Below, piece by piece: positions 25,783 through 42,458 of a DNA stretch of 55,612 bases; the stretch's first letter is position 1, and every line of letters starts with the position of its first letter. The position numbers were made by a program, and so were the translations under genes. The DNA is from a virus (Duplodnaviria; Caudoviricetes): positions 1 through 55,612 of the IMG/VR virus record IMGVR_UViG_3300031576_000053, one strand, 5' to 3'. Below the pieces are notes generated by a model. That model ran no database searches, was not told the origin of the DNA, and was given only the letters and a program-made list of their open reading frames with translations.

Positions 25783-25871
25783 AGCCTATTCACTCCAAGC
25801 GCCTTGAGCGCTGGCTCGGCACCGAACGCATCGAAGTCTTGAGCCGCAAAATGAATGTTGACAACCTATGA
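25767..25871 (+). pseudogene. 34-aa stub paralogous to the N-terminus of the next gene
   Basis: IHSKRLERWLGTERIEVLS versus THSQRLERWVGSERLELIS. Confidence 0.65.
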
Positions 25872-27016: not shown

Positions 27017-27061
27017 TGATGCGTGCTGCCGATGAAACAGTGGGTAAGGTGGTGATCTGAC

Positions 27062-27310: not shown

Positions 27311-27322
27311 AGGAGAAATGCC

Positions 27323-27775: not shown

Positions 27776-27776
27776 A

Positions 27777-28459: not shown

Positions 28460-28465
28460 TAGTGT

Positions 28466-29545
28466 GTGGCTGAACGAAGTCAATATCAATACCAACAGAT
28501 TACCGGCCCGGTCTGGCGGGAACCTGTCGCTGAGAAGCTCGCGTGGCTACCTCGCGGGCAGCAGCCAGCACGAGCGCTCCCACCAAATCGGCTTGGCGAT
28601 TTCGCACGACCGGAATTCGCTGCGTTATATAAACCGGAATTGCTTGAGTGGTTCCCGACCGATAGATACCGCGGGCGCGAGCTGGCGAGGGCGCTTAACG
28701 ATTGGAGCGTCCTCCCGCAACGGGTCGAGGCGATCTACGACCCGCAGAATCTCGAATGGATGCCGCGCGGAGCATATCCACAGGTTCCAATCGAACGGCG
28801 TCGGCTTGGTGACTTCGCCAGGCCGGAATTTGAAGCGCTGTATGGGGCGGAAGGCCTGCAGTGGCAGCCCTCAGATCGATATGCTGGCAGATCGCTTGAG
28901 CGCTCGCTCACTAGACACTCGGTCCTCGATCCGTCACCGCCGATTGTCGTTTACGATCCGCAGAACCTTGAGTGGGTGCCAAGAGGCCAGCAACCAGCGA
29001 GGGTCGAGCCGCGTGGTCTGCTGCTCCAGGCGCTTCTTGATCCGCTTCCGCTGGTCGTCGCGTATGACCCGCAGAATCTCGAATGGCTTCCCGCCGGCGC
29101 GGCCCGCGGGCCGCTGGCGTTGCAAGGGATTTTTCTCGGTCCATGGGCTCTTGATCCAGCTCCCGTAGCGGTCACGGAGCCGAAAGCGCTCATCGGCGGC
29201 GTCACGCCATTCCGGCGTCCGCCGCTGCGGTTGCCGTCGTGGTTGGAGTTGGAGTGCCGCCCATTCGAGGAGCCTACGTTCTGGGGCCGGCCGGTGGCGC
29301 GGCAGGAGAGCCTGCACGAGTCCGCCTCTGTCGCGGAGCTGGCGGAATCGCTCGTCGCGCTGCGCGTAGCCGCGAGATTCACGGCGTCGCCGCACACGGT
29401 CGAGGCGCGCTACCAGCAGCTGCGGCTGCGCGCGCGCGTCATGCTGATCGCGAGGCCGGAGGAGAACGATTGCCCAGAGAGGCTGCGCTCGATCAGGCAG
29501 CCATCGCGCGCTGACCTGCTGATGGCCGCGATGAGAGTTCGATAA
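28466..29545 (+). CDS. Pro/Arg-rich repeat protein
   Basis: About six ~36-aa units with an LxWxP core; YDPQNLEW three times, LGDFARPEF twice. Confidence 0.7.
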   Translation: MAERSQYQYQQITGPVWREPVAEKLAWLPRGQQPARALPPNRLGDFARPEFAALYKPELLEWFPTDRYRGRELARALNDWSVLPQRVEAIYDPQNLEWMPRGAYPQVPIERRRLGDFARPEFEALYGAEGLQWQPSDRYAGRSLERSLTRHSVLDPSPPIVVYDPQNLEWVPRGQQPARVEPRGLLLQALLDPLPLVVAYDPQNLEWLPAGAARGPLALQGIFLGPWALDPAPVAVTEPKALIGGVTPFRRPPLRLPSWLELECRPFEEPTFWGRPVARQESLHESASVAELAESLVALRVAARFTASPHTVEARYQQLRLRARVMLIARPEENDCPERLRSIRQPSRADLLMAAMRVR

Positions 29546-29560: not shown

Positions 29561-30268
29561 ATGAAACCAGAAGAGATCAACTTCGACGTGGTGCGTAGGC
29601 GCGGCGCGGAGTGCGAAACGCGCTCTTTCGCCTTGGACGAGGTGCGGGTGGAGCCTGGCGCGGACGGGATCGGGCAGAGAATCATAGGGCACGCAGCGGT
29701 GTTCGATCTGCTCTCGGAGGACCTCGGCGGGTTCCGCGAGAAGATCTCCCCGGGGGCGTTCGCCGAGGTGATCTCGACGGACGACGTGCGGGCGCTCTTC
29801 AACCATGATGACAACATGCTCCTCGGCCGGAACAAGGCGAACACGCTCTCGCTCGCCGAGGACGAAAAGGGGTTGCGGAGCGTGATCGACCTCCCGGATA
29901 CGCAGCTCGCGCGCGACCTCGCCGTGCTGATGGCGCGCGGGGACGTGAACCAGATGAGCTTCGCCTTCGAAATCTCGAAGGACGGCCAGGACTGGGAGAA
30001 AACGGGCGATGGACCGTGGATCCGCACGATCAAGAAGATCAAGCGGCTGTGGGACGTGTCGGTGGTCACGTTCCCCGCGTATCCGCAGACCGACGCCGCG
30101 GTGCGGGCGATGAGGGCGGTGGAGGAGGTCGCGCTCGCCGCCGCGAGGACGAAGAAAGAGGACGAAGATGCGGTGCTCGCCGCCGCGGGGCTCGCGATCG
30201 CGCGGCGCGCCGAGGTTACGCGCCTCGTGCAGCGTCATCGGCTGCGGCTGATCGACCAGGGACTTTGA
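29561..30268 (+). CDS. HK97-family prohead protease
   Basis: GHAAVF..FREKI..ALFNHD..QMSFAF..DVSVVTFPAY. Confidence 0.95.
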   Translation: MKPEEINFDVVRRRGAECETRSFALDEVRVEPGADGIGQRIIGHAAVFDLLSEDLGGFREKISPGAFAEVISTDDVRALFNHDDNMLLGRNKANTLSLAEDEKGLRSVIDLPDTQLARDLAVLMARGDVNQMSFAFEISKDGQDWEKTGDGPWIRTIKKIKRLWDVSVVTFPAYPQTDAAVRAMRAVEEVALAAARTKKEDEDAVLAAAGLAIARRAEVTRLVQRHRLRLIDQGL

Positions 30269-30388: not shown

Positions 30389-31705
30389 ATGTTGCACAAA
30401 GCAAAGGCACTTCGCGAGGAGCGCGCCAAAATCGCGAAGACCATCAGCGACAACCTCGACCTCATCCAGAAGGACGAGACCGAGGAGGCGCGCAGGCAGG
30501 AGCTGATCGAGAAGAACGAACAGCTTTGGAAGGAAGTCGAGACCAAGAAGCGCGTGATCGACCAGATCGAGCGCCAGGCGGATCTCGAATCCGAGCTGAA
30601 CGACCGCAAGGGTCATCTCCAGCCCAATCCGAACCTCTCGGACGATCCGAAGGAGCGCAAGGAGCAGCAGAAGCTCGCCGTCGAGGCGTACATGCGCTTC
30701 GGCGCCGAGGGGCTCTCGGAGGAGGGGCGGGCGATCATCATGCCGAACACGAACGCCGCGCGAGCGGCGATCGCGGACTGCGTGCGGTCGCTCAAGGGGA
30801 TGTCGCGCGAAGTGCGCGACCTCGCCACGACGACCTCCGGCGCGGTGCTGCCGAACGAGTATTGGGACGACATCGAGAAGTCGATGCTCGCTTTCGGCGG
30901 GATGCGGGAAATCTCCCGCACCATTCGCACCGCGACGGGGAACTCGTTCATCATGCCGACGATGAACGACACCGCCAACGCGGCGACGCTCGTCACGGAG
31001 GCCGGCACGAGCGCCGGGGTGGATCCGACGCTCTCCAGCCTGACGTTGGGCGCATTCACGTATCGCTCCCGTATCAATCTTTCGCGGGAGATGCTGCAGG
31101 ACGCGAGCTTCAACGTCGACGCCTGGGTGCTCGGGCCGGATGGGCTGTCGCAGCGGCTCGCGCGGGGGCTGAACACCGCCTTCACGACGGGGGACGGTTC
31201 CTCGAAGCCGCTAGGCGTGATGGTGGCGACCTCCTCGGGGCTGACGATCAACGACGGCACCGCGATCAACTACAACGACTTTGTCGACCTGGAACACGCG
31301 GTCGATCCGGTGTACCGCCGGAACGGGCGCTACATGTTCCACGACGACTTGCTCAAGTCCGCGAAGAAGATCAAGGACACGCAGAACAACCCGATCTGGA
31401 TGAGCGGGCTCACGCTGCGTGCGCCGGACACGATCCTCGGCTATCCGTACACGGTTAATCAGGACGTGGCGCAGCTCAACCCCGCGGGCGGGGCGGGCGC
31501 GGCCGGCGACAAGGTGATGGCGTTCGGGGACTTCACGAAGTACATCATCCGCGACGTGGTCGGGGACGGGTTCCCGGTGATCCTGCGGTTGATCGAGCGC
31601 TATGCCGAGCTCGGCCAAGTGGCGTTCCTGCTCTTCAGCCGGCACGACGGGGATCTGCTCGACGCGGGCACCGACCCGATCAAGCACGCCATCACCCCGA
31701 GCTGA
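30389..31705 (+). CDS. HK97-fold major capsid protein with delta domain
   Basis: Coiled-coil N-terminus; SREMLQD..GDGSSKPLG..KIKD..TILGYPY..FGDF; AAGGAG RBS. Confidence 0.95.
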   Translation: MLHKAKALREERAKIAKTISDNLDLIQKDETEEARRQELIEKNEQLWKEVETKKRVIDQIERQADLESELNDRKGHLQPNPNLSDDPKERKEQQKLAVEAYMRFGAEGLSEEGRAIIMPNTNAARAAIADCVRSLKGMSREVRDLATTTSGAVLPNEYWDDIEKSMLAFGGMREISRTIRTATGNSFIMPTMNDTANAATLVTEAGTSAGVDPTLSSLTLGAFTYRSRINLSREMLQDASFNVDAWVLGPDGLSQRLARGLNTAFTTGDGSSKPLGVMVATSSGLTINDGTAINYNDFVDLEHAVDPVYRRNGRYMFHDDLLKSAKKIKDTQNNPIWMSGLTLRAPDTILGYPYTVNQDVAQLNPAGGAGAAGDKVMAFGDFTKYIIRDVVGDGFPVILRLIERYAELGQVAFLLFSRHDGDLLDAGTDPIKHAITPS

Positions 31706-31760: not shown

Positions 31761-31788
31761 GCCCCGGCTTACGGGCCGGGGCTTTTTT
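31761..31788 (+). terminator. Intrinsic terminator after the capsid gene
   Basis: GCCCCGGC-TTACGG-GCCGGGGC-TTTTTT. Confidence 0.85.
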
Positions 31789-31835: not shown

Positions 31836-32069
31836 ATGCGCATCCGCTTCAAATCCAGCGTTGCCGGGCCGCTCTGCACCTACCGGCCGGGCGAGGAGAT
31901 CGAGCACCAGGACGAGGCGCAATGCGTCCGTTGGATCAAGGCCGGGGTGGCAGAGCCGGTCAAGGTCCGGGCCGCCGAGACGGGCGTCGCGCGCGCGCCG
32001 GAGGACACGACCCTCCACCTGCCGCGCGGGAAGCGGTACGTCCCGCGGGCGAAGCGACCGGCGGGCTGA
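31836..32069 (+). CDS. Small head-associated protein
   Basis: YRPGEEI..RWIKAGVAEPV; usual post-capsid position; AAGGAG RBS. Confidence 0.7.
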   Translation: MRIRFKSSVAGPLCTYRPGEEIEHQDEAQCVRWIKAGVAEPVKVRAAETGVARAPEDTTLHLPRGKRYVPRAKRPAG

Positions 32070-32071
32070 GA

Positions 32072-32701
32072 GTGGGACCGTACTCGCTCGTCCTGCTCGA
32101 CGGCCCTTCCGAGGAGCCGGTGACCCGCGCCGAGGCGAAAGCGCACCTCGGGGTCGAGCACTCGAACGACGACGCGATGATCGACGCGCTGATCGAGGCC
32201 GCGCGCCAGGCCTGCGAGGTCGAGACGGGGCGGCAATTCTGCCTCGCGCGCCGGGAGATGCGCCTGGACGCCTTCCCGACCGCGGGGAACCAGCAGATCA
32301 CGGTGCCGCGCCCGCCGCTCTGGACGCTGGAGAAGATCGAGTACATCAACGCCGACGGGAACCTGACGGCGCTCGGGCCGACGGAGTATATCGTGGACAA
32401 GAGCTCTGAGCCCGGGCGGGTCCGGCCGACGTTCGACAAGAGCTGGCCGAGCGCGCGCGATGAGATCGGGGCGGTGCGCGTTACCTTCCTCGCCGGGTAC
32501 ACGCCCCACGAAGTCGGGAGCCCGACGGACTACGCGCGCAACGTCCCGAAGGCGCTCAAGCAGGCCGTGCTGCTGACGGTCGGGGATCTCTACATGAACC
32601 GCGAGAACGTGAACATCGGCAATATCACCAGCGAGCTGCCCGGCACGGCGAAGATGTTGCTCTGGCACCATCGCGTAGTGAACTACGACCTCACGGCCTG
32701 A
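32072..32701 (+). CDS. Head-tail connector (gp6/phiE125 gp8-like)
   Basis: EPVTRAEAKAHL..AARQACE..FLAGY..VPKALKQAVL..LYMNRE. Confidence 0.9.
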   Translation: MGPYSLVLLDGPSEEPVTRAEAKAHLGVEHSNDDAMIDALIEAARQACEVETGRQFCLARREMRLDAFPTAGNQQITVPRPPLWTLEKIEYINADGNLTALGPTEYIVDKSSEPGRVRPTFDKSWPSARDEIGAVRVTFLAGYTPHEVGSPTDYARNVPKALKQAVLLTVGDLYMNRENVNIGNITSELPGTAKMLLWHHRVVNYDLTA

Positions 32702-32704
32702 GCG

Positions 32705-33040
32705 ATGCCCGCCGGGTTGGCCGTCGGTCGCCTTCGAGAGAAGGTTACGATCCAGAGCCTGACGACTGTCCGCGACGCTCACGGCCAGCCGATCGAGACT
32801 TGGGGCACGTTCGCGGCGTGGCGCTGCGAGATCGCTCCGATTCGCGGGCGGGAATTCTTCGCGGCGCGGCAGTTCCAGGCCGAGACGACACACAAGCTCA
32901 CGGGGCACTGGATCAGCGGCGTGCTGCCGACGATGCGGATCTCGCATGGCAGCCGGATCTTCCGGATCGAGGCCGTGATCAACGTCGGGGAGAGGAACCG
33001 CGTGCTTGAGTTGATGTGCGCAGAAACGCTTGGCGGATGA
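32705..33040 (+). CDS. Head closure protein (SPP1 gp16-like)
   Basis: GRLREKVTIQ..D.HG..W..PIRGREF..MRI..LELMC. Confidence 0.9.
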   Translation: MPAGLAVGRLREKVTIQSLTTVRDAHGQPIETWGTFAAWRCEIAPIRGREFFAARQFQAETTHKLTGHWISGVLPTMRISHGSRIFRIEAVINVGERNRVLELMCAETLGG

Positions 33041-33771
33041 AATTGCCGTTTGGGAACGTCGAGCCGGAGTGGGCCGGGGCGACGGTTGCGATCATCGGCG
33101 GGGGGCCGAGCCTGACGCAAGAACAGGTGACGGTCTGCCGCGGGCGGTGCCGCGTGATCGCGGTCAACACGTCCTACCTGCTCGCGCCGTGGGCCGACGC
33201 CCTGTATTTTTGCGACGAAGCGTGGTACGGCTGGCATCGCGAGGCAAAGGCGTTCCGCCGGTTCGCGGGGATAAAGGTGGCGCTCGCAAACGCGCGCACC
33301 ACGTACTCGGAGCGTGGAGTCTTGAACGGCGACCCGGCGATCAGGGTGCTGCGAAACTATGGAGGGCCGCCGGAGTTCGTGGGGCTGTGCGAGAACCGCG
33401 ACGGCGTCTACACGGGGAGGAACAGCGGCAACCAGGCGATCCAGCTCGCCGCGCACCTGGGGGCGAGGCGCGTCCTGCTGCTCGGGTTCGATATGCGCGC
33501 CCAGGGCGCGAAGACGCACTGGCACATGGCGCACAAGCGCCCGACGGACCCGAATGACTTCAATCAGATGCTCACGTGGTTCGCGCCGCTCGTCGAGCCC
33601 TGCCGCAAGCGCGGGATTGAGGTCGTTAACTGCACGCCGGGGAGCGCGGTCGAGTGCTTCCCGAGGGCGACGATAAACGATGCCTTGGCGGCTGACGAGA
33701 GCGAGCGCGCCGGGGAGCGCGCGCGTCGGGAGGTGAATCAGAAGCAGGAATACTTTTTCCGCACGTCTTGA
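33037..33771 (+). CDS. Maf/DUF115-like (sialyltransferase-fold) putative glycosyltransferase
   Basis: AIIGGGPSL..IAVN..D..W..NSGNQAIQLA..LGA..LLGFD..HW..H..VVNCT. Confidence 0.65.
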   Translation: MKLPFGNVEPEWAGATVAIIGGGPSLTQEQVTVCRGRCRVIAVNTSYLLAPWADALYFCDEAWYGWHREAKAFRRFAGIKVALANARTTYSERGVLNGDPAIRVLRNYGGPPEFVGLCENRDGVYTGRNSGNQAIQLAAHLGARRVLLLGFDMRAQGAKTHWHMAHKRPTDPNDFNQMLTWFAPLVEPCRKRGIEVVNCTPGSAVECFPRATINDALAADESERAGERARREVNQKQEYFFRTS

Positions 33772-34580
33772 TGGCCCGCGCATGGTGCCTGATCCGCGAG
33801 CAGGTCCACTATAGGCGGGAAGCGTTCCTCCAAGGGCTCGCCGCCGCCGGATATGAGATAGCTCAGAGCGCGCGCGAGGAGGGGAATCCGAACTTCTCTC
33901 GCTCCGGCGCGGGCGACGTGCTGGTGATCTGGAACCGTTATGGGCACTACGAGGATTGGGCGCGGGAGTTCGAGCGCCGCAGCGGACGGGTGCTGGTGGC
34001 GGAGAACGGCTACCTCGGGGACGATTCGAACGGGCGGCAGCACTACGCCCTCGCCGTCGGGCAGCATAACGGCGGCGGGCGCTGGCACGTCGGGGGGCCG
34101 GAACGGTGGCGGGCGCTCGGGATCGGACTAAAGCCCTGGAGGACCGATGGCGGGCACATCCTGATCTGCCCGCAGCGTGGGATCGGCCCCAAGGACTACG
34201 TGCAGCGCGCGAACTGGCAGCACAGGCTCGCCGACCGGCTGAAGGGCGTTACCAAGCGTCCGGTGCGTATCAGGCCGCACCCGGGGAACGTGCCGCAGGC
34301 CGAGGCTCGGGCGTCGCTCGCCCGCGACCTGGATGGCTGTTGGGCGATGGTGACGTGGGCCTCGGGCGCGGGGATTCACGCGCTGGTCGCCGGAGTGCCG
34401 GTGTTCTATGAGGCGCCGTACTGGATCCTTGCCGGGGCGGGGGAACGCAGCGTTCTGGACATCGATAATCCGCACTACCTCGCGCGGGAGGAAGCGTTCG
34501 TAAAGTTGTCGTGGGCTCAGTGGACGCTCGCTGAGCTGGCGACCGGAGAGCCTTTTCGCCTTCTTGCCGCGTTGCCGTGA
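33771..34580 (+). CDS. Putative glycosyltransferase, KpsS/Capsule_synth-like GT-B (copy 1)
   Basis: ENGY..IRPHP..MVTWASGAGIHALVAGVPV..WAQWTLAEL..G. Confidence 0.7.
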   Translation: MARAWCLIREQVHYRREAFLQGLAAAGYEIAQSAREEGNPNFSRSGAGDVLVIWNRYGHYEDWAREFERRSGRVLVAENGYLGDDSNGRQHYALAVGQHNGGGRWHVGGPERWRALGIGLKPWRTDGGHILICPQRGIGPKDYVQRANWQHRLADRLKGVTKRPVRIRPHPGNVPQAEARASLARDLDGCWAMVTWASGAGIHALVAGVPVFYEAPYWILAGAGERSVLDIDNPHYLAREEAFVKLSWAQWTLAELATGEPFRLLAALP

Positions 34581-35419
34581 AGTTCGTCTTCTACCGTAGC
34601 CAGACGGGCCGCTCAAGGATGATCCTCGGTGCGGTCAAGGAGGGCCTTGCGAAGCTGGGACATGGCATCGTCGAGGTCCACGAGAGCGAGTACCGCGGGG
34701 TCGAGGCGGATGTGGCCGTTCACTACGGCCTCTGGGGTAATCTGCGGCGCATCCAGCAGGAGTACGCGGCGGCGGCGAAGTCCGTCTTGATCGACCTCGG
34801 GTATTGGGGCCGGGTCGAGGGCGGGAAGCTCGCCGGCTACCACCGCATCGCGGTGAACGCGCGGCACGCGACGGGTTACTTTCAGCGCTTCAGGCACTCG
34901 CCGGACCGCTTCCGGCGCTTCGGGATCGAGCCGAGGCCATTCCGTCGCGACGGGGGCCACGTGCTGCTCTGCGGCATGAGCGGTAAGGCGGCATGGGTCT
35001 ACGGGCTCGAGCCGCAGCAGTGGGAGCGGGCGGCAATCGCGCGGCTGCGGGCGCATACCGCACGCGCGATCCGCTACCGGCCGAAGGACTCCTGGAAGGA
35101 CGCGAGCCAGCTTGAGGGAGCAGCGTTCCACCAGGAGCGCGTGGACATCGGCGCGCACCTCGCGGGCGCTTGGGCGGTGGTGACGCACCACGGGAATACG
35201 GCGCTCGACGCGCTAATAGCTGGCGTGCCTGCTTTTTGTGAAGAGGGGCTCGCCTCGGCGCTCGCAAAACCGGCGCTAGAGGAGATTGAGTCTCCGTTCT
35301 ACCCGGACGAGGGCGCGCGCGACCGGCTGCTCTGGGACGCGGCCTGGACGCAGTGGCGGCCGTGCGAGATGGCGGACGGCTCGGCGTTTCGCTACCTGTT
35401 CGAGGAAGGGTTGCTTTGA
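34577..35419 (+). CDS. Putative glycosyltransferase, KpsS-like (copy 2)
   Basis: DLGYW..YRPK..VVTHHGNTALDALIAGVP..AWTQW..E..G. Confidence 0.7.
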   Translation: MKFVFYRSQTGRSRMILGAVKEGLAKLGHGIVEVHESEYRGVEADVAVHYGLWGNLRRIQQEYAAAAKSVLIDLGYWGRVEGGKLAGYHRIAVNARHATGYFQRFRHSPDRFRRFGIEPRPFRRDGGHVLLCGMSGKAAWVYGLEPQQWERAAIARLRAHTARAIRYRPKDSWKDASQLEGAAFHQERVDIGAHLAGAWAVVTHHGNTALDALIAGVPAFCEEGLASALAKPALEEIESPFYPDEGARDRLLWDAAWTQWRPCEMADGSAFRYLFEEGLL

Positions 35420-35474
35420 AATTCCAAGGTATCGTGCGCGAGGCTCAAAAGCGTGAAGCGCTATGGAGTGGAGT

Positions 35475-36320
35475 TTGAAGCTCGCGTTCTACGCGTCTGA
35501 CGGAGAGGGCGATAAATTGCTCGTCGCGGCGGTGATGGCCGGTGCCGCGCGCCACGGCGATGAGGCGAGATACATCCCGTGGCCGAGCTACGATGGCGTG
35601 ATCGCGGAGGCGGACGCCGTGGCGTGTTACGGCGTGCGGGCGTCTACCCGCATCATCACCGACGCCTATCGGCGCGCGGGGAAGCGCTCGCTTTACTTTG
35701 ATAAAGGCACGTGGGGTCGCGGCATCTATACGCGGGTCGCCGTAGACGCGTGGCAGCCAACAGCGTATTTCCGATGCGGACGACCGAGCGATCGGCTGGA
35801 GAAGTCCGGCATCGTACTGAAGCCGTGGCGCGGCGCGGCTGGTGCGAAGATCATCTTCGCGGCGACGACGCAAACCTGGCTCGATTTTTATGACATCGGG
35901 CATGGGCGCAGGCTCGACGAGCTGATGATCGGAATGCTCGCTGGCTTGGAACCGGGCATTGTCGTTTACCGCCCGAGGCCGGCCTACGCGAGGAAACACC
36001 CGGAGCTCTGCGGACCCATCGCTGGGGCGGAGCTCTCGGACCCGACGCAACCGCTGGCCGAAGCGCTCGCCGACTGTATGCTGCTCGTGACAATCGGCTC
36101 GAATACGGCGGTAGAGGCGCTCGCTGCAGGAGTCTCGGTGCTCGTGCTAGGGGACAATCCGTGTCGATTGCTCAACTGGCGATCCGTGGATGTAGAACGC
36201 GAACGGCCTCAGTTCTTCGCGGACCTCGCGTGGTGCCAGTGGAAGCTCGATGAGTACCTCTCCGGTGAAGCGTGGGCGGACATCAAGGAAACGATGAAAC
36301 GGACGGTGCAATGCGTGTAA
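35475..36320 (+). CDS. Putative glycosyltransferase, KpsS-like (copy 3)
   Basis: YFDKG..DAWQPTAY..YRPRP..LVTIGSNTAVEALAAGV..LAWCQWKLDE..SG. Confidence 0.7.
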   Translation: MKLAFYASDGEGDKLLVAAVMAGAARHGDEARYIPWPSYDGVIAEADAVACYGVRASTRIITDAYRRAGKRSLYFDKGTWGRGIYTRVAVDAWQPTAYFRCGRPSDRLEKSGIVLKPWRGAAGAKIIFAATTQTWLDFYDIGHGRRLDELMIGMLAGLEPGIVVYRPRPAYARKHPELCGPIAGAELSDPTQPLAEALADCMLLVTIGSNTAVEALAAGVSVLVLGDNPCRLLNWRSVDVERERPQFFADLAWCQWKLDEYLSGEAWADIKETMKRTVQCV

Positions 36321-37765
36321 TTTTTTGGGTAGCGGAGAAGGACAGAAATTACGGCTTGGCGGAGGCCGTTGCGGAGAGCGCGAAGGTACACGGCGACGAG
36401 GTCGAGATCGTGCCGCAGCGCATGTTCCAGGGCGTGCGCGGCGACGCGGACGCCGGGGCGTGCCTCGGCGTCAAGCGCGCCGGCAAGCGCCTGCTTCATG
36501 CACACCTGCAGGCTGGGCGTCATTTTCTGTATTTCGACAAGTCGTATTTTGACAGGGCGAATTACGTGCGCGTCTCCGTGGACGCCTGGCAGCCAACGGC
36601 GTACTACAGGCAGCAGCGCCCGGCTGATCGCTTCGAGCGCTTTAGGCTGACGATCGAGCCGCGCTGCGGCGGCGGCAAGGAGATCCTGTTCGCCGGGTCT
36701 TCGCAGAAGTACGCGAATTTCCACGACCTCGGCGACGCGACGGAGTACGCGGGGCGCGTCGTGCGGCGTCTGAAGAAGTCGATGAAAGTCCACGAGCGGC
36801 CTATCGTCTACCGGCCAAAGCCGAGCTGGGTCGCGCACCACCCCGAGGAGTGCAAACCGATCGAAGGGACGCGCTTCTCCGCGCCCGGGACGCCGATACG
36901 TGAAGAGTTGAAAAACTGCCATCTGCTCGTGACGCATGGCTCGAACGCCGCCGTGGACGCGCTCCTCGCCGGGGTTCCGGTGATGGCGCTTGGCTCGGGG
37001 ATCTTTAACCGGATGTCGATGGGCGAGCGCTACGATCTGATCGAGAACCCATTCTTTCCTACCGATGAAGAGCGGCGGCAGTTTTTCTATGACTTGGCGT
37101 ATTGCCAGTGGACGCTTGACGAGTTCCGCTCGGGCGAGGCGTGGGCGGACCTGCGCGGCACGTTCGCGAAGCTCGGGCCGGTCCAAGGGGCCGTCGGCAT
37201 GGAGGAGAGCAATAGCCTCGCCCATGTCGTGGGCCTGTACCGCAAGATGCACGAGCACCCGAAGTATTTCCGGGGCCGCGAGGCGCATAAGCACTTCTCC
37301 AAGATCGGGCGGCTGGTGCTCGCGCACGGCGCGAAGTCCATCCTCGACTACGGCTGCGGCAAGGGCGAGCAGTACGGGCCACCGATCAGTTTGCAGGAGG
37401 CGTGGGGCGTGGAGGTCGCCTGCTACGACCCTGGCGTGCCGCGCTTCGAGAAGATGCCAGAGGGGGCCTTCGACGGCGTGATCTGCTGCGACGTGATGGA
37501 GCACATCCCGGAGCCGCACGTCGGAGAGATTCTGCGCGATATTCTCTGCCGCGCCCGCAAATTCGCGTTCCTCTCGATTGCTACGATGCCGGCCTCAAAG
37601 ACGTTGCCGGACGGGCGAAACTGCCATCTGACGGTGCGACCGGAGGCATGGTGGCGCGAGCAGATCCAGGCCGCGCGCGTCGCGGTAGGAGCTGCGGAAC
37701 TCCAGATCGAGGCGGCGATCTACAACGCGCCGGTCGCGCCACCTGAAAAGGAGGATGACGATTGA
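36311..37765 (+). CDS. Fused KpsS-like glycosyltransferase (copy 4) and class I SAM methyltransferase
   Basis: N-terminal YFDKS..YRPKP..LVTHGSNAAVDALLAGVPV..LAYCQW; C-terminal ILDYGCGKG..DVMEHIPE. Confidence 0.8.
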   Translation: MRVIFWVAEKDRNYGLAEAVAESAKVHGDEVEIVPQRMFQGVRGDADAGACLGVKRAGKRLLHAHLQAGRHFLYFDKSYFDRANYVRVSVDAWQPTAYYRQQRPADRFERFRLTIEPRCGGGKEILFAGSSQKYANFHDLGDATEYAGRVVRRLKKSMKVHERPIVYRPKPSWVAHHPEECKPIEGTRFSAPGTPIREELKNCHLLVTHGSNAAVDALLAGVPVMALGSGIFNRMSMGERYDLIENPFFPTDEERRQFFYDLAYCQWTLDEFRSGEAWADLRGTFAKLGPVQGAVGMEESNSLAHVVGLYRKMHEHPKYFRGREAHKHFSKIGRLVLAHGAKSILDYGCGKGEQYGPPISLQEAWGVEVACYDPGVPRFEKMPEGAFDGVICCDVMEHIPEPHVGEILRDILCRARKFAFLSIATMPASKTLPDGRNCHLTVRPEAWWREQIQAARVAVGAAELQIEAAIYNAPVAPPEKEDDD

Positions 37766-38313
37766 CGCTGGAGGAGCTTCACCAGCTTTATCGCCGCACG
37801 CACGAGCAGAATCCGAAGCGCTTTCTCGGCTACACGACGAAGCTCTATGTCGAGCCAATCAAGAGGCTCATCGAGGAGACGGAAGCGACCTCGCTCCTCG
37901 ACTATGGCAGCGGGAAGGGCGCTCAATATCTCGGTGGTCGCCGAGTGCATGAGCGCTGGGGCGGGCTGCTCCCTTGGTGTTACGACCCTGGCGTCATCGG
38001 ATTGAACGAGAGACCGCAGCGCAAGTTCGACGGCATGATCTGCTGCGACGTGATGGAGCACATCCCGGAGGAATTGCTCGCCGAGGTCATCGCCGATGTG
38101 TTCTCGTTCGCGGAGCGGTTCGTTTTGCTCGGCATTGCCACCGTGCCATCGCACAAGGTGACGGCGGACGGACGCGGCTCGCACCTTACCGTCAGACCGC
38201 CGGATTGGTGGATGTCGGTCATTGACAGGATGCTCCCGCCCCGATGCGCGCTTCCGCCGTTTCGGTGGGAGGCGTGGTTCACGGATGAATCGAAGATCGC
38301 GAGGAAAGGATGA
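37762..38313 (+). CDS. Class I SAM methyltransferase (paralog of the preceding C-terminal domain)
   Basis: LLDYGSGKG..YDPG..CCDVMEHIPE..HLTVRP..WW. Confidence 0.85.
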   Translation: MTLEELHQLYRRTHEQNPKRFLGYTTKLYVEPIKRLIEETEATSLLDYGSGKGAQYLGGRRVHERWGGLLPWCYDPGVIGLNERPQRKFDGMICCDVMEHIPEELLAEVIADVFSFAERFVLLGIATVPSHKVTADGRGSHLTVRPPDWWMSVIDRMLPPRCALPPFRWEAWFTDESKIARKG

Positions 38314-38359
38314 TTCGGCTTTTCAACGGCTGGAAGGCGCTCAAGGAGGATGACGACTG

Positions 38360-39067
38360 ATGGACAAGTTGCGCGTTTTCATCGGCTATGATGCCGATGA
38401 GACGGTGGCGCTGCACGTGCTCTCGCACTCCATCATGAGGCACGCGCGCGCCCCGGTTGCGATCACGCCGCTGTGCCTGGGCCAAGTGCCGATGACGCGG
38501 GAGCGGGCCGAATATCAGAGCACGGACTTCTCGTTCTCCAGGTTCCTAGTTCCGTATCTGTGCGGCTACGATGGGCGGGCAATCTTCATGGATTGCGACA
38601 TGCTCGCGCGCGCGGACCTCGCGGAGCTGCTGGCGCTGCACGACCCGTACCGCGCCGTCTCGGTGGTTAAGCACGAGTACGCGCCCAAGCCGGGGGACAA
38701 GTTCCTCGGCTACAAGCAGTCGCTCTACGGCAAAAAGAATTGGTCCAGCGTGATGATCTTTGAGAACGCGCTTTGCCGGGCGCTGACGCCGCACGTCGTG
38801 AACACGGCGAGCGGCCTGTTCCTTCATCAGTTCAAGTGGCTGCAGGACGACTCGATGATCGGCGCGCTGCCGGTCGAATGGAACCACCTCGTCGGGGAGT
38901 ATGAGCCGAACCCGAGCGCGAAGATGGTGCATTTCACGCTCGGCACGCCATGTTTCGCGGCCTACGCGAACTGCGAATTTTCGGCAGAGTGGCATGAGGA
39001 AAAGAACCTGATGCTGGACTACAACAAGGCGGGGGAGTTCTCACGCAAGGCGAGGACTGGGACTTGA
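38360..39067 (+). CDS. GT-A glycosyltransferase (GT8-like)
   Basis: VFIGYD..STDFSFSRFLVP..FMDCDML (DxD)..NWSSVM..WNHL..HFT. Confidence 0.85.
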   Translation: MDKLRVFIGYDADETVALHVLSHSIMRHARAPVAITPLCLGQVPMTRERAEYQSTDFSFSRFLVPYLCGYDGRAIFMDCDMLARADLAELLALHDPYRAVSVVKHEYAPKPGDKFLGYKQSLYGKKNWSSVMIFENALCRALTPHVVNTASGLFLHQFKWLQDDSMIGALPVEWNHLVGEYEPNPSAKMVHFTLGTPCFAAYANCEFSAEWHEEKNLMLDYNKAGEFSRKARTGT

Positions 39068-39774
39068 GCGCTATCATGTCGGTGGAGGCGGTAGACAAAG
39101 GCGCATTCTGCAAGACCTGGGCTCGGCGCTGGCAGGATGCGCGGCCACAGCTCAAGGCGAAGGAGCCACACTCGGCTGTTCGTTCGGGCGTCGCTGATGC
39201 CGAAGCCTTGTCATTGCGCGTGCAGTTGAACAACGTGCGAACGTTAGACTTCGGTTGCGGTCACGGACGGAGCGCGCTCGGCCTCCTGCTTCATGGAGTA
39301 AACAACTACCTTGGCATAGACGCGCGCCTCCTGGCGATCGAGTTCGCCCGCAGGCTCTTTGCCGAGCAACCGGGCTATCAGTTCGAATACTTCGACTCGG
39401 CTAATGGTCGCTACAACAAGGGAGGCGGGCCTAAATTGTTTTTGCCTGTTACAGCCCGCTCCTTTGAGCTTGCCTTGGCGGTGTCGGTGTTCAGTCATGA
39501 GCCAGATGATGAGGTGGTGGCCCATTATCTGAGCGAACTGTGGCGAGTATTGACGCCGAACGGTGTGCTGGCATGCACCTGGATTACCAGTGCGCCTATG
39601 GATCATGCGGATAATCGTTTTTCCATCCGTACCCACGAGGGGATTTTCGCACTTCTGAACGCTTGGGCGGTGTCGGATTGTTGGGGAGCGGGGGAAGCGG
39701 GCGATCAATGGTGGACATTAGCCCACAAAAGTAACAAGTCGCCCACGGTTGCCGGGTCACATAACCATGCCTGA
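39064..39774 (+). CDS. Class I SAM methyltransferase
   Basis: LDFGCGHGR..YLGID..SVFSH..YLSELWRVLTPNG. Confidence 0.85.
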   Translation: MSAIMSVEAVDKGAFCKTWARRWQDARPQLKAKEPHSAVRSGVADAEALSLRVQLNNVRTLDFGCGHGRSALGLLLHGVNNYLGIDARLLAIEFARRLFAEQPGYQFEYFDSANGRYNKGGGPKLFLPVTARSFELALAVSVFSHEPDDEVVAHYLSELWRVLTPNGVLACTWITSAPMDHADNRFSIRTHEGIFALLNAWAVSDCWGAGEAGDQWWTLAHKSNKSPTVAGSHNHA

Positions 39775-40567
39775 GATCGCGGTCGTTACCTCGTGCTCGG
39801 CGGCGGGCTGGGAGCAGTACGGTCGGGGCTTCGTCGAGACCTTCACGCGGTACTGGCCTGCCAATGTGGCGCTGTATCTTTGCTCAGAGGATCTCGGGCC
39901 ACGCCCGATCGACGCGCAACTGATCGACCTCGCGGCGTCGGAAGGCTGGCTGGCATTCGAGGCGCGACACCGCGATAACCAGCGCGCGCACGGACGGGCC
40001 CGGCAAGCTGGCGACATCGGCTGGACGCCTAACAAGATCAAGGCGGGTTACAACTTCCGTTATGACGCATTCCGCTTCGCGAAGAAGGTTTTCTCCATCG
40101 AGGCGGCGATGCGCGAAGTTGGCAGAGGCCGACTTCTGTGGGTTGACGCCGACGTGGTGACGTTCGCGCCCGTGCCGGAGGCGCTGCTTGACGAACTGCT
40201 CCCGATCGGAGCGGCGCTCTCGGCGCTGCTACGCGATGGCTATCATCCGGAGTGCGGCTTCGTCGGCTATAACTTGGAGCACGAGGCGTGCCGCGCTTTC
40301 ATCGCGGAGTTTGCGAGGCTCTACGCATCGGACGAGGTCTTCGCGCTCCAGGAGTGGCACGATTCCTGGGTCTTTGAGTGGTTGCGAAGGAAGATGGGCG
40401 TGCCGACGCACGCGATCCCGCACTGCTCGCGGCGGCATCCATTTCCGAATAGTGCGCTTGGGCGCGTGGCGGATCATTGCAAGGGAGATAGAAAGATCGC
40501 CGGCAGGACTGATCCGCGTGAGGTGTTCACGCACAGCGACATCCCATATTGGCGTGGTGCCGCGTGA
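39767..40567 (+). CDS. GT-A nucleotide-diphospho-sugar transferase
   Basis: VVTS..YG..RFAKKVF..LLWVDADVV (DxD)..ECGF..WHDS..DHCKG. Confidence 0.8.
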   Translation: MPEIAVVTSCSAAGWEQYGRGFVETFTRYWPANVALYLCSEDLGPRPIDAQLIDLAASEGWLAFEARHRDNQRAHGRARQAGDIGWTPNKIKAGYNFRYDAFRFAKKVFSIEAAMREVGRGRLLWVDADVVTFAPVPEALLDELLPIGAALSALLRDGYHPECGFVGYNLEHEACRAFIAEFARLYASDEVFALQEWHDSWVFEWLRRKMGVPTHAIPHCSRRHPFPNSALGRVADHCKGDRKIAGRTDPREVFTHSDIPYWRGAA

Positions 40568-41151
40568 TTCTTCCGGAGGAACTTGCCGCCGGCACCAGCA
40601 CGACGGTCGAGCAGGCGGAGCGCCGTATCAGTCGTTATGAGCGGACTTTTCGTTCCATAAGGCCGTGGCTACCGCCAGGATTGGTTCTTAATTTCCTGGA
40701 CATCGGTTGCGGCACTGGGGGGGTGGCGATGCGGGTGGCGGGTCATTATCCGAACGCGACCGCGCACCTGATCGACGGCGATGCTTGGGGCGAGAAATTC
40801 TCATACCGTCCAGACGGCAGGCCTTGGGCCGACGTGAAATTGGCGCTAAAGCTGTGGGCGAAATATCTACCGAACCGTGCCGTGCGCGCCTGGCCCCCGG
40901 ACCCGGCGTTGACGATCCCATGCGAGCTGATCTACTCGAACTGCTCCTGGGGGCACCACTACGCGATCGAGACTTATCTCGGTCTCGCGCGGCGGAGTCT
41001 GCAACCGGGCGGCACGCTGATCGTGGATTTGCGCGTCGGGAATATCGGCGAACATGGTCGCAAGGCGCTCGGGGCTTATTTCGCGCATGTCGCGGACATC
41101 GAGGTTGGCCAGAAAAAGTACGCCCGCACGGTGTGGAGGAATGCGCGATGA
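40564..41151 (+). CDS. Class I SAM methyltransferase
   Basis: FLDIGCGTGG..LIDG..SWGHHY..LQPGG. Confidence 0.85.
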   Translation: MILPEELAAGTSTTVEQAERRISRYERTFRSIRPWLPPGLVLNFLDIGCGTGGVAMRVAGHYPNATAHLIDGDAWGEKFSYRPDGRPWADVKLALKLWAKYLPNRAVRAWPPDPALTIPCELIYSNCSWGHHYAIETYLGLARRSLQPGGTLIVDLRVGNIGEHGRKALGAYFAHVADIEVGQKKYARTVWRNAR

Positions 41152-41274
41152 ACTTGGAAATGATAGGTAGTTTTATTCGACGGCTGGCGAAGCGCCATTT
41201 TCGAGCGCGGCTGCGGCACTTAAAGGTTACGACCGGACCGAGCAAGGCCGAGAAGCGGGCCGAGAGAGAAAAGA

Positions 41275-41892
41275 GTGCGCTGGAAGCTTCCCGAGGCAGA
41301 TAGCTACTTCGCGCCCCTGCTAACGGACGACGGATTCCAGATCGATCACCTGCGCGTCGCGCTTGGGTATGTGCGGGCCTGGCGCACGGCGGTCGATGGA
41401 GGGGCGCACGTCGGCACTTGGACCTGCTGGATGGCGCAGCGCTTCGGTCGTGTGTTGGCGGTCGAACCGGCGGAGGATGCCTTCGAATGCCTGTTCGCGA
41501 ACACGCGGCGGCTCGACAACGTGGTGCGGCTGCGCGCGGCGCTGGGCGCCGCCCCCGGGGTGGCCTCCGTGCTGGACGATGCGCGGCGTCCAGGTAATAC
41601 CGGGGCACGCTATCTCGGCCCTGGCAACGACGTGGAGGTTCTGCGTCTGGACGACTTGGAGCTGGAGGATGTGGACTTCGTCAAGCTCGACATCGAGGGC
41701 GGCGAGTTCCACGCGCTGCAGGGCATGGAGGCGACGCTGCGGCTCTGCAAGCCGGTCGTGTGCGTGGAGGAAAAGCATTTCGGCGAGCGCTTTGGCGTGC
41801 GACCTGGGGCGGCGCTGGAGTTCCTGCGCATGCTCGGTGCGCGCGAGGCCGAGGCGATCGGCAAAGACCACGTGTTCCTGTTCGACCACTGA
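41275..41892 (+). CDS. FkbM-family methyltransferase
   Basis: AVDGGAHVG..AVEP..F..L..N..AALG..LDD..DFVKLDIEGGE..KPVVCVE. Confidence 0.9.
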   Translation: MRWKLPEADSYFAPLLTDDGFQIDHLRVALGYVRAWRTAVDGGAHVGTWTCWMAQRFGRVLAVEPAEDAFECLFANTRRLDNVVRLRAALGAAPGVASVLDDARRPGNTGARYLGPGNDVEVLRLDDLELEDVDFVKLDIEGGEFHALQGMEATLRLCKPVVCVEEKHFGERFGVRPGAALEFLRMLGAREAEAIGKDHVFLFDH

Positions 41893-41903: not shown

Positions 41904-42458
41904 ATGGCTGATTTTAGGACGCAATGGAAGATAACCGGCCTGAAGGAGCTGGCAGAGTTTCTCAAAGACCTGCCGATGGATCTGCGCCGCGGCGTGGTCC
42001 GGAGGGCGCTGCGCAAGGCCGCCCTGCTCGTCGAAACGGACGCGAAGCGCCGGGTGCCAATCCTCAAGCCTCGTCTAATTAAGGGGCGGTCGGAGCTGGA
42101 TCCTAGGCGCACCCCCGGGACGCTCCTGAACGCGATCAGGACCGCGGGAGCGTTTAGCCCGGCTGGCGGCACGGAGGTGATCGTCAAGGTCGGCGTCAAA
42201 CGTCTTACGAAATCGGCCGTCGCCCGGTTCAAGCTGGCCAGCGGGAAGGGGGGGGCGTTCAACCCGAATGACCCGTTCTACGCAATGTACGTCGAGCGCG
42301 GAACCTCGAAGACGCCCGTTCAGGCGTTCATGCGTCCTGCTCTGGAGTCGCAGGGTTTCGCCGTGGTAGAGCGGTTCCGGGAGGAGTTCAGACGTGGCCT
42401 AGATGAATTCGCGAAGAAGTTATTGCTGCACAAGGGGCGGGCCGCCTCCGGGGCGTGA
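41904..42458 (+). CDS. HK97 gp10-like tail-completion protein
   Basis: ITGLKEL..RRALRKAA..TPGTL..FYAMYVERGT..FMRPAL. Confidence 0.85.
   Translation: MADFRTQWKITGLKELAEFLKDLPMDLRRGVVRRALRKAALLVETDAKRRVPILKPRLIKGRSELDPRRTPGTLLNAIRTAGAFSPAGGTEVIVKVGVKRLTKSAVARFKLASGKGGAFNPNDPFYAMYVERGTSKTPVQAFMRPALESQGFAVVERFREEFRRGLDEFAKKLLLHKGRAASGA

Follow-up and report, generated by a model that had tools for sequence, protein, structure and literature searches.

The window analysed here, the whole 55,612-nt stretch of the caudoviricete IMG/VR record IMGVR_UViG_3300031576_000053, carries 11 genes (g1 to g11), all on the plus strand at positions 33037-41892 according to the ORF listing and start refinement. 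These genes, their flanks and the nearby transcriptional signal are:

31761-31782, plus strand: terminator-like hairpin directly 3' of the major capsid gene (9-bp stem, 8 GC pairs, T-run)
32705-33040, plus strand: head completion (head closure) protein, left flank (PF05521, 2.2e-24)
33037-33771, plus strand: g1, GT42/DUF115 (Maf, Cst-II)-like glycosyltransferase (phrog_4603, 1.9e-45)
33771-34580, plus strand: g2, KpsC/WbbB-fold (beta-Kdo-transferase-like) GT-B enzyme (paralogy; His-Pro motif aligned to KpsC/WbbB)
34577-35419, plus strand: g3, paralogue of g2 (30% identity, E 2e-23)
35463-36320, plus strand: g4, paralogue (DUF6716; PF20471, 28.1 bits; modelled by AF2)
36311-37765, plus strand: g5, fusion of a fourth KpsC-fold domain (g5N; 41% identity to g4) and a SAM methyltransferase (g5C; Methyltransf_23 1.5e-7; phrog_24759 4.6e-25)
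37762-38313, plus strand: g6, SAM methyltransferase, paralogue of g5C (46% identity; phrog_24759 1.6e-20)
38360-39067, plus strand: g7, GT8-like DxD glycosyltransferase of GT-A type (phrog_28018, 3.3e-49)
39064-39774, plus strand: g8, class I SAM methyltransferase (Methyltransf_12/11/25, E 5e-10 to 4e-9)
39767-40567, plus strand: g9, virus-restricted DxD GT-A enzyme with a retaining GT6/GT8-like fold (AF2 model and Foldseek)
40549-41151, plus strand: g10, probable SAM methyltransferase (weak; six sub-threshold methyltransferase Pfam matches, E 1e-4 to 6e-3, over a glycine-rich motif)
41275-41892, plus strand: g11, FkbM-family methyltransferase (PF05050 4.2e-17, TIGR01444 3.2e-21, phrog_8156 5.9e-27)
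41904-42458, plus strand: HK97 gp10-like neck/tail-completion protein, right flank (phrog_5 'tail completion or Neck1', 1.7e-15; weak PF04883 HK97-gp10_like match, 0.0029, under the cut-off)

The initial annotation had described mostly translationally coupled enzyme genes lodged between two genes that normally adjoin, a description that the ORF listing and the PF05521 and phrog_5 matches of the flanks bear out. Specifically, the head-completion gene directly adjoins the gp10-like gene in the cassette-free relatives L137 and L181, 7 of the 10 internal g1-g11 junctions overlap by 1-19 nt, the ATG of g1 overlaps the stop codon of the head-completion gene (ATGA) and 11 nt separate the end of g11 from the start of the gp10-like gene. 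Coding sequence fills 8694 of the 8856 bases of the interval, and GC at third codon positions (0.65-0.87) is the same as in the structural genes. The cassette and the neck genes all lie downstream of the capsid-gene hairpin, the sole strong terminator found, and a terminator is annotated at the equivalent site of PMG1. Inside the cassette, neither a strong terminator nor a plus-strand promoter-like site was found. None of the 11 products contains a transmembrane segment (every 19-residue window is at or below 1.75 on the Kyte-Doolittle scale), and none is a flippase, polymerase, ligase or Gtr-like membrane protein. Sugar-nucleotide genes and an integrase are likewise missing among the scanned window ORFs of this record, which is ~73% complete, in line with the initial annotation. 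The view of g1-g11 as a late, soluble, co-transcribed operon is thus upheld. The host is probably Gram-negative and likely an alphaproteobacterium.

Profiles and two AF2 models reproduced the first tally of one Maf/DUF115-like protein, four paralogues, two DxD enzymes and five SAM-methyltransferase domains (g5C, g6, g8, g10 and g11), with g10 assigned solely from sub-threshold Pfam matches. The candidate initiating enzyme is g1. It is a weak member of PF01973/DUF115, the family of Maf flagellin nonulosonic-acid transferases (31.4 bits, under the 34.6 cut-off), and unlike Maf it is just 244 aa long and lacks the flanking domains. Its family profile (A4) can also be aligned to Cst-II of the Campylobacter GT42 enzymes Cst-I/Cst-II (2x63, 0.0036) over ~145 positions that include both nucleotide-binding motifs. 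In the cytoplasm, Maf enzymes attach glycans to a structural protein that self-assembles, and they would offer the best functional analogy for g1. To our knowledge, E. coli K-12, the host of P1, makes neither sialic nor pseudaminic acid; since the hosts of some homologues lack these sugars, the donor of g1-type enzymes may be CMP-Kdo or another compound.

The four paralogues g2, g3, g4 and g5N share 27-41% pairwise identity. Their initial designation as KpsS-like GT-B domains agrees with the AF2 model of g4 (pLDDT 94.3), whose best 14 Foldseek matches in the PDB are all retaining Kdo transferases (KpsC, WbbB, KrkA), and with a match of the family profile to KpsC (6.6e-4). The motif S..G.EAL..G is common to the paralogues and to KpsC/KpsS (GT107), WbbB (GT99) and KrkA, and g2 shares the His-Pro motif as well. 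By contrast, TM-scores of the g4 model reach only 0.43-0.52, no paralogue matches PF05159, and the proteins are single-domain, phage-borne and ~270-285 aa long. Kdo-transferase chemistry is not assured, because the profile position aligned with the Asp nucleophile of KpsC is not acidic and because g3, g4 and g5N, three of the four paralogues, have no His in the HP motif. Heptose-nucleotide genes next to a KpsC-like fold in some relatives point to other donors, and the phosphatidylglycerol linker is an unlikely acceptor.

Foldseek likewise identified g9 as a glycosyltransferase (model pLDDT 91.7), with matches to BoGT6a (1.2e-7), XXYLT1, alpha3GalT and glycogenin; W131, D133 and D135 are invariant in its family, and its clusters in the Atlas are exclusively viral, with fused forms carrying MptE-like and TylF-type domains. 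The g7 family profile (A6) matches the GT8 domain of WbbM (7.6e-4) and GlyE (0.0039), PF01501 is matched by 13 of 44 family members, and D78 and D80 are invariant. The lost HP-motif His, the lack of a clear acidic match to the KpsC nucleophile and the annotation of P1 homologues merely as 'putative morphogenetic function' would fit another late substrate (a phage protein outside the virion, a scaffold or a small molecule) or several paralogues serving as catalytically dead assembly factors. We regard this as improbable, given that the nucleotide-binding and DxD motifs of the cassette glycosyltransferases are unchanged across tens of diverged homologues and that sugar-biosynthesis genes co-occur in relatives.

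The system had been presented as exceptional, a view contradicted by its distribution. A relative of g2, the core gene of the cassette family (5071 matching clusters at 50% identity, E<=1e-3), is encoded in 195 of 318 IMG/VR pattern matches (195 contigs). Among 80 inspected viral loci, g1 occurs in 66, mostly immediately 5' of g2 in the gene order lists, g11 in 36, g7 in 34 and g9 in 11. All matches lie on a single strand at 111 of 111 loci; structural-gene matches occur at 61 of the 80 viral loci, with the cassette co-oriented, and upstream of 13 of 16 viral loci without such matches lie Pfam families of portal, terminase or capsid proteins, including lambda gpE/gpD heads, protease-capsid fusions and Mu-type portals. 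The synteny survey proposed at the outset thus revealed a recurrent, co-oriented late-gene location, and the one-strand loci and varied upstream families indicate that head modules of several unrelated types have acquired the cassette, in each case within the late operon. Cultured phages carry it too. In CcrBL9, the one record examined among the lytic Caulobacter jumbo phages, a six-gene version lies after the tail-fibre genes (g1, g2, another gene with the KpsC fold, one GT8-like gene, one methyltransferase and one GT9-like gene), and in 14 more Caulobacter and Bertelyvirus records a g2 match covers at least 80% of the gene. Reduced forms are present in D3/PMG1 and P1: in the D3-like phage PMG1, g1 lies immediately 3' of the capsid gene and a methyltransferase occupies the head-closure/gp10 junction, and in P1, PmgO lies within a late operon. 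Nine related cassettes exchange genes for heptoses, aminosugars, galactofuranose and C-methyl sugars, their variable content comprising SIS isomerase, cytidylyltransferase-like proteins, GDP-mannose-dehydratase-type epimerases, GT9-like enzymes, UDP-galactopyranose mutase, DegT aminotransferases, a sugar C-methyltransferase, radical SAM and TPP enzymes. Our literature search found no paper describing the cassette.

Given the observed genes, coupling, folds and families, recurrent location and variability, we consider it somewhat probable that the cassette serves to build, late and in the cytoplasm, a variable, methylated glycan attached to a virion component. Being transcribed together with the neck genes from downstream of the capsid-gene terminator and translationally coupled to them, it would act as follows: g1 would start the chain on a protein of the capsid, neck, tail or fibre; the four KpsC-fold enzymes, along with both retaining GT-A enzymes, would lengthen it from host-made donors; and O-methylation of the sugars by the five methyltransferases would follow, yielding a strain-specific methylated oligosaccharide coat. 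The donor of g1-g5 could be CMP-Kdo or another CMP-ulosonic acid, by analogy with the sole known donors of those folds, and g7 and g9 would use UDP-hexoses. Of the virion glycosylation first proposed, the late, soluble and co-transcribed character stands; acceptor, donors, order of action and biological benefit are what we infer. Position alone is indecisive, since morons also insert at head-tail junctions, and action during particle assembly is favoured instead by the occurrence in several unrelated morphogenesis modules and in lytic jumbo phages, together with the lack of Gtr-type membrane parts.

A serious rival, which we hold to be possible but rather unlikely, is late remodelling of the host envelope, with Kdo, heptose or hexose plus methyl groups added, on the inner side of the membrane, to lipid-linked intermediates of the LPS core, capsule linker or O-antigen; one possible benefit would be to destroy or mask the phage receptor and thereby spare progeny loss on debris or infected cells. 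KpsC acts on a phosphatidylglycerol-Kdo linker and WbbB on O-antigen, both lipid-linked, and the GT8 and GT9 families are typical of LPS-core synthesis; since the closest folds (KpsC, WbbB and KrkA for g4, WbbM among the GT8 matches, GT9-like genes in relatives) mostly build lipid-linked envelope glycans, the idea keeps some weight. Moreover, pairs of g5N-like and g7-like genes occur in Verrucomicrobiota and other MAGs, in one case (Rubrivivax MAG L110) beside heptose-nucleotide genes; the 5 kb upstream of such pairs at 10 genome loci held cellular genes and no phage structural families, so the enzyme pair has cellular uses. However, envelope remodelling sits poorly with the lack of a flippase, polymerase, ligase or membrane segment, with a cassette embedded in and coupled to neck genes, unlike an independently expressed moron, and with its presence in several head-module types and behind the tail fibres of lytic jumbo phages, and an inner-face product made only late would depend on export by the host to get to the surface before lysis.

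Two further models can be envisioned, both very improbable. Lysogenic conversion, in which a prophage-expressed moron alters the surface antigen of the lysogen, recalls D3, a relative of PMG1 and a known converting phage, and some carriers may be prophages, as they lie on large MAG contigs (277 kb and 275 kb) next to phage structural genes. Against it, no promoter-like site or terminator brackets the late-gene-coupled cassette, the window of this 73% complete record shows no integrase, and lytic Caulobacter jumbo phages carry the cassette. Gtr-type and other O-antigen-modifying serotype-conversion modules are also phage-encoded glycosyltransferase systems, but they comprise a prophage-expressed membrane flippase, bactoprenol transferase and periplasmic transferase, of which the cassette has none. 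The second model, equally remote, would attach the methylated glycan to modified bases in the phage DNA just before packaging. Glycans of several sugars can be built on DNA by phage glycosyltransferases (Pyle et al. 2024, as cited in PMC12619734), and the window encodes a TET-associated-glycosyltransferase-like protein; its gene (16303-16950), however, lies in the early/replication region outside the cassette, none of the 11 proteins matches a DNA-glycosyltransferase family, and across loci the cassette follows morphogenesis rather than nucleotide-metabolism genes.

If virion glycosylation is the true reading, this recurrent, widespread and variable cassette family would represent a system of the mycobacteriophage type. 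Short Pro/Ser tails end the capsid protein in 12 of 19 carriers versus 3 of 33 without the cassette, an association largely gone after phylogenetic correction (only 2 independent contrasts on supported branches); at the cassette-free loci L137, L151, L166 and L170, whose tails contain Pro, the scanned downstream ORFs include no glycosyltransferase families. The tails are thus a weak hint and a lead. According to PMC12619734, virion glycosylation cassettes occur in the mycobacteriophages Che8, Corndog and Myrna (Freeman et al. 2023, Cell Host Microbe), with glycans reportedly carried by the C-terminal ends of capsid and tail-tube subunits, a location that the Pro/Ser tails faintly echo. Both systems combine soluble glycosyltransferases and O-methyltransferases among or beside virion structural genes, and the use of host donors and late action would be shared. 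Unlike those phages, ours probably infects a Gram-negative host, likely an alphaproteobacterium, and its much larger set is distinguished by its families (GT42/Maf-like, KpsC-fold, GT8 and GT6/8-like), by its place inside the neck-gene block and by its high variability between relatives, the glycan here being predicted from the genes. Chlorovirus PBCV-1 also encodes a cytoplasmic multi-enzyme system that assembles a methylated capsid glycan, but in a eukaryotic virus, with atypical N-linked glycans, unrelated enzymes and dispersed genes rather than the one operon described here.

The window, 55,612 bp long, is a linear virus record from IMG/VR whose completeness is estimated at 73%. Its late region lies on the + strand and runs from the small and large terminase genes through the portal and an unknown-gene block to the prohead protease, after which eleven enzyme genes (the cassette, g1 to g11) are embedded among the head and neck genes:

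29561-30268, +, S78 prohead protease
30389-31705, +, HK97-type major capsid protein
31922-32701, +, gp6-like head-tail adaptor
32705-33040, +, head completion protein, followed by the eleven enzyme genes
41904-42458, +, gp10-like neck protein, after the cassette

Downstream of the gp10-like gene lie genes for gp17-type tail completion, the tail tube, chaperones, the tape measure and GTA-like distal tail proteins. The eleven cassette genes, with a third-position GC of 0.65-0.87, account for 8694 of the 8856 bases in 33037-41892. The stop codon of the head-completion gene overlaps the ATG of g1 (ATGA), seven of the ten internal junctions overlap, and 11 nt separate the end of g11 from the next structural gene. 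A consensus scan placed the single strong terminator-like hairpin at 31761-31782, just 3' of the capsid gene, detected no + strand promoter-like site within the cassette, and recovered only weak, intragenic hairpins there (16 sites in the region versus 11.1 +/- 4.1 in shuffles). In two insert-free relatives, L137 and L181, the head-completion gene abuts the gp10-like gene. The initial annotation, which described mostly translationally coupled enzyme genes placed exactly between head closure and the HK97-gp10 gene, is borne out on both points.

Four glycosyltransferase domains, namely g2, g3, g4 and an N-terminal stretch of 300 residues in g5 (g5N), are paralogues with 27-41% identity, and a 59-sequence profile of this family matches Escherichia coli KpsC (E = 6.6e-4) and WbbB (E = 0.15). 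The 14 best PDB matches of the g4 AlphaFold model (pLDDT 94.3, pTM 0.90) in Foldseek are KpsC, WbbB and KrkA (E 1.4e-7 to 4e-6, TM 0.43-0.52), all of them retaining beta-Kdo transferases, and generic GT-B enzymes such as WaaC reach a TM below 0.33. An S..G.EAL..G motif is common to the g2-type family and KpsC/WbbB, and g2 and the g2-type consensus carry a His-Pro motif aligned to the HP of KpsC and WbbB. In other searches, g4 and g5N touch Pfam DUF6716, PF05159 (Capsule_synth) matched no window protein and one of the 120 homologues listed (P0085), phmmer of g4 against the PDB gave nothing significant, the A3 and A5 cassette-family profiles retrieved nothing useful from the PDB, and searching for loci with g4 as the sole query recovered no relative. 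We regard the predicted KpsC/WbbB-type GT-B fold of g2, g3, g4 and g5N as a firm assignment. Kdo-transferase chemistry, as judged from the motifs, is not firm, because the HP position is Arg/Lys-Pro in g4 and g5N and Lys-Asp in g3, and because the nucleophile Asp of KpsC, D160 (D232 in WbbB), stands opposite a profile glycine in the HMM alignment; in g4 an Asp comes close to that position only under manual re-alignment.

The first gene, g1, matches phrog_4603 (‘alpha-2,3-sialyltransferase’, 1.9e-45) and scores 31.4 bits against PF01973 (MptE/DUF115, the Maf family), under the 34.6 gathering cut-off and over profile positions 134-167 only. Phmmer of g1 against the PDB returned nothing significant. 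A profile of 57 g1 homologues (A4) matches the GT42 enzyme Cst-II of Campylobacter over about 145 positions (E 0.0036-0.03), with both nucleotide-binding motifs aligned: the G-x-G-P-S-L motif of the consensus (GGGPSL in g1 itself) with the Cst-II N-terminus, and the central S-G ... L-G ... L-x-G-x-D motif column by column. Across the 57 sequences D159 is invariant and G134, G138 and G157 are nearly so, as are H168 and H173, candidates for the catalytic histidine, both beyond the end of the Cst-II alignment at position 163. Judged by its motifs, g1 is a candidate GT42/DUF115-type enzyme lying below the Pfam threshold. The top three PDB matches of the g1 profile, ferritin fusion constructs, were rejected as spurious, the match beginning on an artificial glycine/serine linker.

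The two remaining glycosyltransferases are candidate GT-A enzymes. The window g7 protein has no Pfam match; it matches phrog_28018 (3.3e-49), PF01501 (GT8) is matched by 13 of 44 family members (best 2e-8), and the family profile, in which D78 and D80 of the DxD motif are invariant, matches the GT8 domain of WbbM (7.6e-4), GlyE (0.0039) and also glycogenin. No sequence family was found for g9, whose model (pLDDT 91.7) resembles GT-A enzymes of the retaining families GT6 and GT8 (BoGT6a at 1.2e-7, XXYLT1, alpha-1,3-GalT, glycogenin and LARGE1); with a W-x-D-x-D motif invariant in its family, including D133 and D135, g9 is predicted to be a GT6/GT8-like GT-A enzyme with a DxD motif. The g4 and g9 models thus uphold, as GT-B and GT-A folds respectively, the glycosyltransferase folds first proposed for these reading frames. 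The nearest ESM Atlas clusters of g9 are virus-only, and g9-like domains, recognized by structure, are fused to MptE-like and Methyltransf_24/TylF domains in viral proteins of 699-761 residues, tying together g9, the g1 family and sugar-type O-methyltransferases. Among the methyltransferases, the g5 C-terminal and g6 domains are 46% identical (phrog_24759), g8 matches Methyltransf_11/12/25, g11 is an FkbM methyltransferase (4.2e-17) and the g10 call rests on sub-threshold matches; NCBIfam matches name generic methyltransferases only.

A complex system of this kind was at first thought exceptional. That view does not survive a survey of viral metagenomes: a g2 relative is encoded by 195 of 318 IMG/VR pattern matches, and cultured phages carry the cassette as well. 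Searched against 1.84 billion representatives, the g2-type profile matches 5071 clusters (50% identity level) at E<=1e-3, 827 of them at E<=1e-30. When the 80 best IMG/VR loci were checked by tblastn with the window proteins (the paralogue labels g2 to g5N being interchangeable), g1 was found in 66, g11 (FkbM) in 36, g7 in 34 and g9 in 11, and g1 usually stood immediately 5' of g2 in the gene orders printed. Synteny, which the initial annotation had proposed to survey, shows a recurrent cassette, with all matches co-oriented at 111 of 111 loci and homologues of window structural genes at 61 of the 80 viral loci. The insertion point shifts: the nearest recognizable gene on the left is gp6 (19 loci), the protease (10), head completion (7) or the capsid (4), and on the right gp6 (18) or head completion (10). 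Window-type structural matches were lacking at 29 loci, and upstream reading frames were scanned in 26 of them (all except L030, L092 and L107); in 13 of the 16 such viral loci scanned, the upstream genes encode portals, terminases or capsids from other families, including lambda gpE with gpD heads (L007, L061), protease-capsid fusions with a portal (L019, L024, L025), Mu-type portals (L029, L059, L073) and an encapsulin-like capsid (L047). The cassette occurs in 3 of 80 loci chosen by capsid similarity alone, which marks it as accessory and sporadic. None of 50,697 phage records was matched when the entire region was compared by megablast.

Two details of these loci deserve mention. At L073:1499-3463 the Mu-type portal match and an anti-CBASS Acb1 domain (PF23474, 4.6e-40) share one reading frame, which could be a genuine fusion or a merger of two genes. 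In four loci, ORF coordinates place collagen triple-helix repeat proteins directly upstream of the g1-like gene (L019:8204-9280, L049:7973-9181, L060:6509-7537, and L064:5522-5902 and 6392-8947), possible fibre acceptors of the glycan.

Cultured carriers include the Caulobacter jumbo siphoviruses (CcrBL9, CcrSC, CcrPW, CcrColossus and relatives), which match g2 over at least 80% of its length in 15 of 17 records. In CcrBL9, the one record examined, g1, g2, a second KpsC-fold gene, a GT8-like gene, a methyltransferase and a GT9-like gene stand together directly 3' of the tail/tail-fibre genes and 5' of the endolysin. Homologues of g1 alone occur in 74 phage records. In the D3-like Pseudomonas phage PMG1 a g1 homologue follows the terminator of the capsid gene and precedes the adaptor gene, and the head-closure/gp10 junction, the one used in the window, holds two unknown genes and a methyltransferase. 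The cassette-free relative L120 has four reading frames of 163-379 residues, with no Pfam family, between its capsid and adaptor genes (11779-15516), another uncharacterized insert at the same junction. In P1, g1 has two homologues in the late operon LPpmgL, PmgO and the adjacent PmgP; both are weak MptE/DUF115 matches (5995-7181 of the P1 locus) and hence two g1-family paralogues in one late operon. An alphaproteobacterial host is suggested by the genome and MAG carriers with phage context, which belong to Rhodospirillaceae, Kiloniellales and Inquilinus. More distant pairs of g5N- and g7-like genes occur in Verrucomicrobiota and other MAGs, with cellular genes in the upstream 5 kb (10 genome loci scanned).

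Non-homologous stretches of nine related cassettes yielded 58 reading frames for family scans. They encode a heptose-nucleotide-like set (SIS isomerase, cytidylyltransferase-like protein and dehydratase/epimerase), GT9-like proteins at five loci, UDP-galactopyranose mutase, DegT aminotransferases, a sugar C-methyltransferase, radical-SAM/SPASM and B12-radical-SAM enzymes, a TPP enzyme and further methyltransferases, and among them no export or polymerization gene was found. This is the repertoire of an O-antigen or capsule locus minus export and polymerization, and it makes it very likely that the cassette builds a glycan. To our knowledge, CMP-activated 2-keto-3-deoxy acids are the only known donors of the GT42/Maf and KpsC folds, which make up five of the seven cassette glycosyltransferase domains. 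Since CMP-Kdo is, as far as known, made by every Gram-negative host, and no sugar-nucleotide enzyme gene was found among the window ORFs scanned in this 73% complete record, a Kdo-containing chain is, by analogy, an attractive guess; it stays a guess because the nucleophile has no clear counterpart, HP motifs are altered, and the relatives carry heptose and GT9-like genes.

As to what would receive this glycan, we lean slightly, on contextual grounds, towards a virion component. The cassette is co-transcribed and coupled with neck genes, has been captured repeatedly by unrelated late operons, is carried by strictly lytic jumbo phages beside fibre genes and encodes soluble enzymes only, and the DNA-glycosyltransferase-like gene of the window stands apart in the early region. 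Weighing against a virion target, the nearest characterized enzymes act on lipid-linked envelope glycans, cellular homologues exist, and morons are known to insert at head-tail junctions. Late remodelling of the host envelope by the same enzymes is accordingly given some weight, though we consider it unlikely, and other targets are less probable again. Lysogenic conversion appears very improbable. Gtr-type serotype conversion employs the GtrA flippase, the GtrB bactoprenol transferase and the membrane protein GtrC; the cassette has no Pfam or PHROG match of these types, and no 19-residue window of its proteins exceeds a hydropathy of 1.75, the maxima falling on Rossmann-fold motifs, in keeping with the initial annotation, which had set the system apart from such conversion.

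Modification of DNA bases by the cassette is likewise highly unlikely: none of the eleven proteins matches a phage DNA-glycosyltransferase family (TAGT, T4 alpha/beta-GT), and the sole such gene of the window lies outside the cassette at 16303-16950. This early-region gene (+) is TET-associated-glycosyltransferase-like (PF20691, 1e-10; phrog_842, ‘beta-glucosyl-HMC-alpha-glucosyltransferase’, 7.5e-28) and suggests, by sequence similarity, that this phage has glycosylated DNA bases; Pfam detected no TET/JBP or hydroxymethylase family among 60 further ORFs of the 73% complete record.

One candidate signature of a virion target was examined in the capsid, with loci taken from an alignment search (a single-protein capsid search gave 2 loci only) and non-carriers each having at least 6 kb of downstream sequence. 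Proline occurs in the last five capsid residues of 12 of 19 carriers versus 3 of 33 non-carriers (Fisher 6.5e-5), carrier tails being for example PSP and SPQS, and the window capsid ending in TPS. The carrier label changes only 6 times on the capsid tree, leaving 2 independent contrasts on supported branches, both in the expected direction, so that a sign test cannot reach significance: strong in the raw counts, the association is unsupported once relatedness is allowed for, and we treat it as a lead, not as evidence. A six-member distant carrier clade has no proline tail, and L137, L151, L166 and L170 have tail proline, while their scanned ORFs show no glycosyltransferase family. In one proline-tailed ‘non-carrier’ with a related capsid, L145, another kind of cassette takes the corresponding place, comprising a GT2 and Methyltransf_24/TylF fusion and a GT1-like gene in the neck-gene region (12445-14741), which suggests that this region is a shared hot spot for non-homologous glycan cassettes.

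As far as we know, a few mycobacteriophages are the only tailed phages for which experiments have shown glycosylated virions (Freeman et al. 2023, as cited in PMC12619734). That system is the nearest in kind: in both, genes for glycosyltransferases and methyltransferases lie in the operon of the virion structural genes. The logic is common to the two, and as far as tested the enzymes, host type and scale appear to differ. Our literature search, with subscription journals mostly outside its scope, found nothing on DUF6716, the g1/PmgO family or KpsC-fold enzymes in phage virion operons, and the virion or capsid glycosylation papers found were mostly on mycobacteriophages or reviews, with none on this cassette among those listed.

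Tentatively, the cassettes may represent a hypervariable ‘coat-glycan locus’ in the assembly operons of many Gram-negative tailed phages, dressing virions in host-envelope sugars. A small GT42/Maf-like protein glycosyltransferase would start the chain, its homologues including P1 PmgO/PmgP and D3 Orf7, for which we know of no assigned function (PmgO/PmgP are annotated only with a ‘putative morphogenetic function’). A new phage branch of the beta-Kdo-transferase fold would extend it from host CMP-Kdo and other envelope precursors. The resulting O-methylated oligosaccharide would resemble LPS core (Kdo/heptose/hexose) and decorate capsid or fibre proteins, and the coat might diversify at O-antigen speed. 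If the cassette does glycosylate virions, glycan coats would be common among Gram-negative phages (195 IMG/VR contigs; 5071 core-enzyme protein clusters), highly variable and made by folds for which capsule and LPS synthesis are the only roles known to date. This would matter for the stability and adsorption of phages, for their recognition by immune systems and predators, and for the pharmacology of phage therapy, and P1 and D3 genes annotated only as hypothetical or ‘putative morphogenetic’ would gain a function. A direct test is feasible in the cultured carriers (Caulobacter phages, D3/PMG1 and P1).

Outside the cassette, five genes without an assigned function or family name (25035-29545, +) separate the portal and prohead protease genes, which are usually adjacent. 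One of them matches the unnamed phrog_644; the block includes a 382-residue virus-only protein with a Ser/Thr-rich C-terminus (25868-27016, +) and a 359-residue protein (28466-29545, +) in which a motif about 45 residues long recurs four to five times, and GC falls to 0.56 at 28-29 kb. The leftward early region encodes an N6/N4 DNA methyltransferase (7663-8922, -; PF01555, 1.2e-30). Five homing-endonuclease-like genes (1515-2009, 19567-20145, 20600-21100, 46704-47504 and 51265-51915, all +), comprising two HNH, one DUF559 and two GIY-YIG/NUMOD3 types, are scattered over the window, and two of them interrupt the distal tail module.
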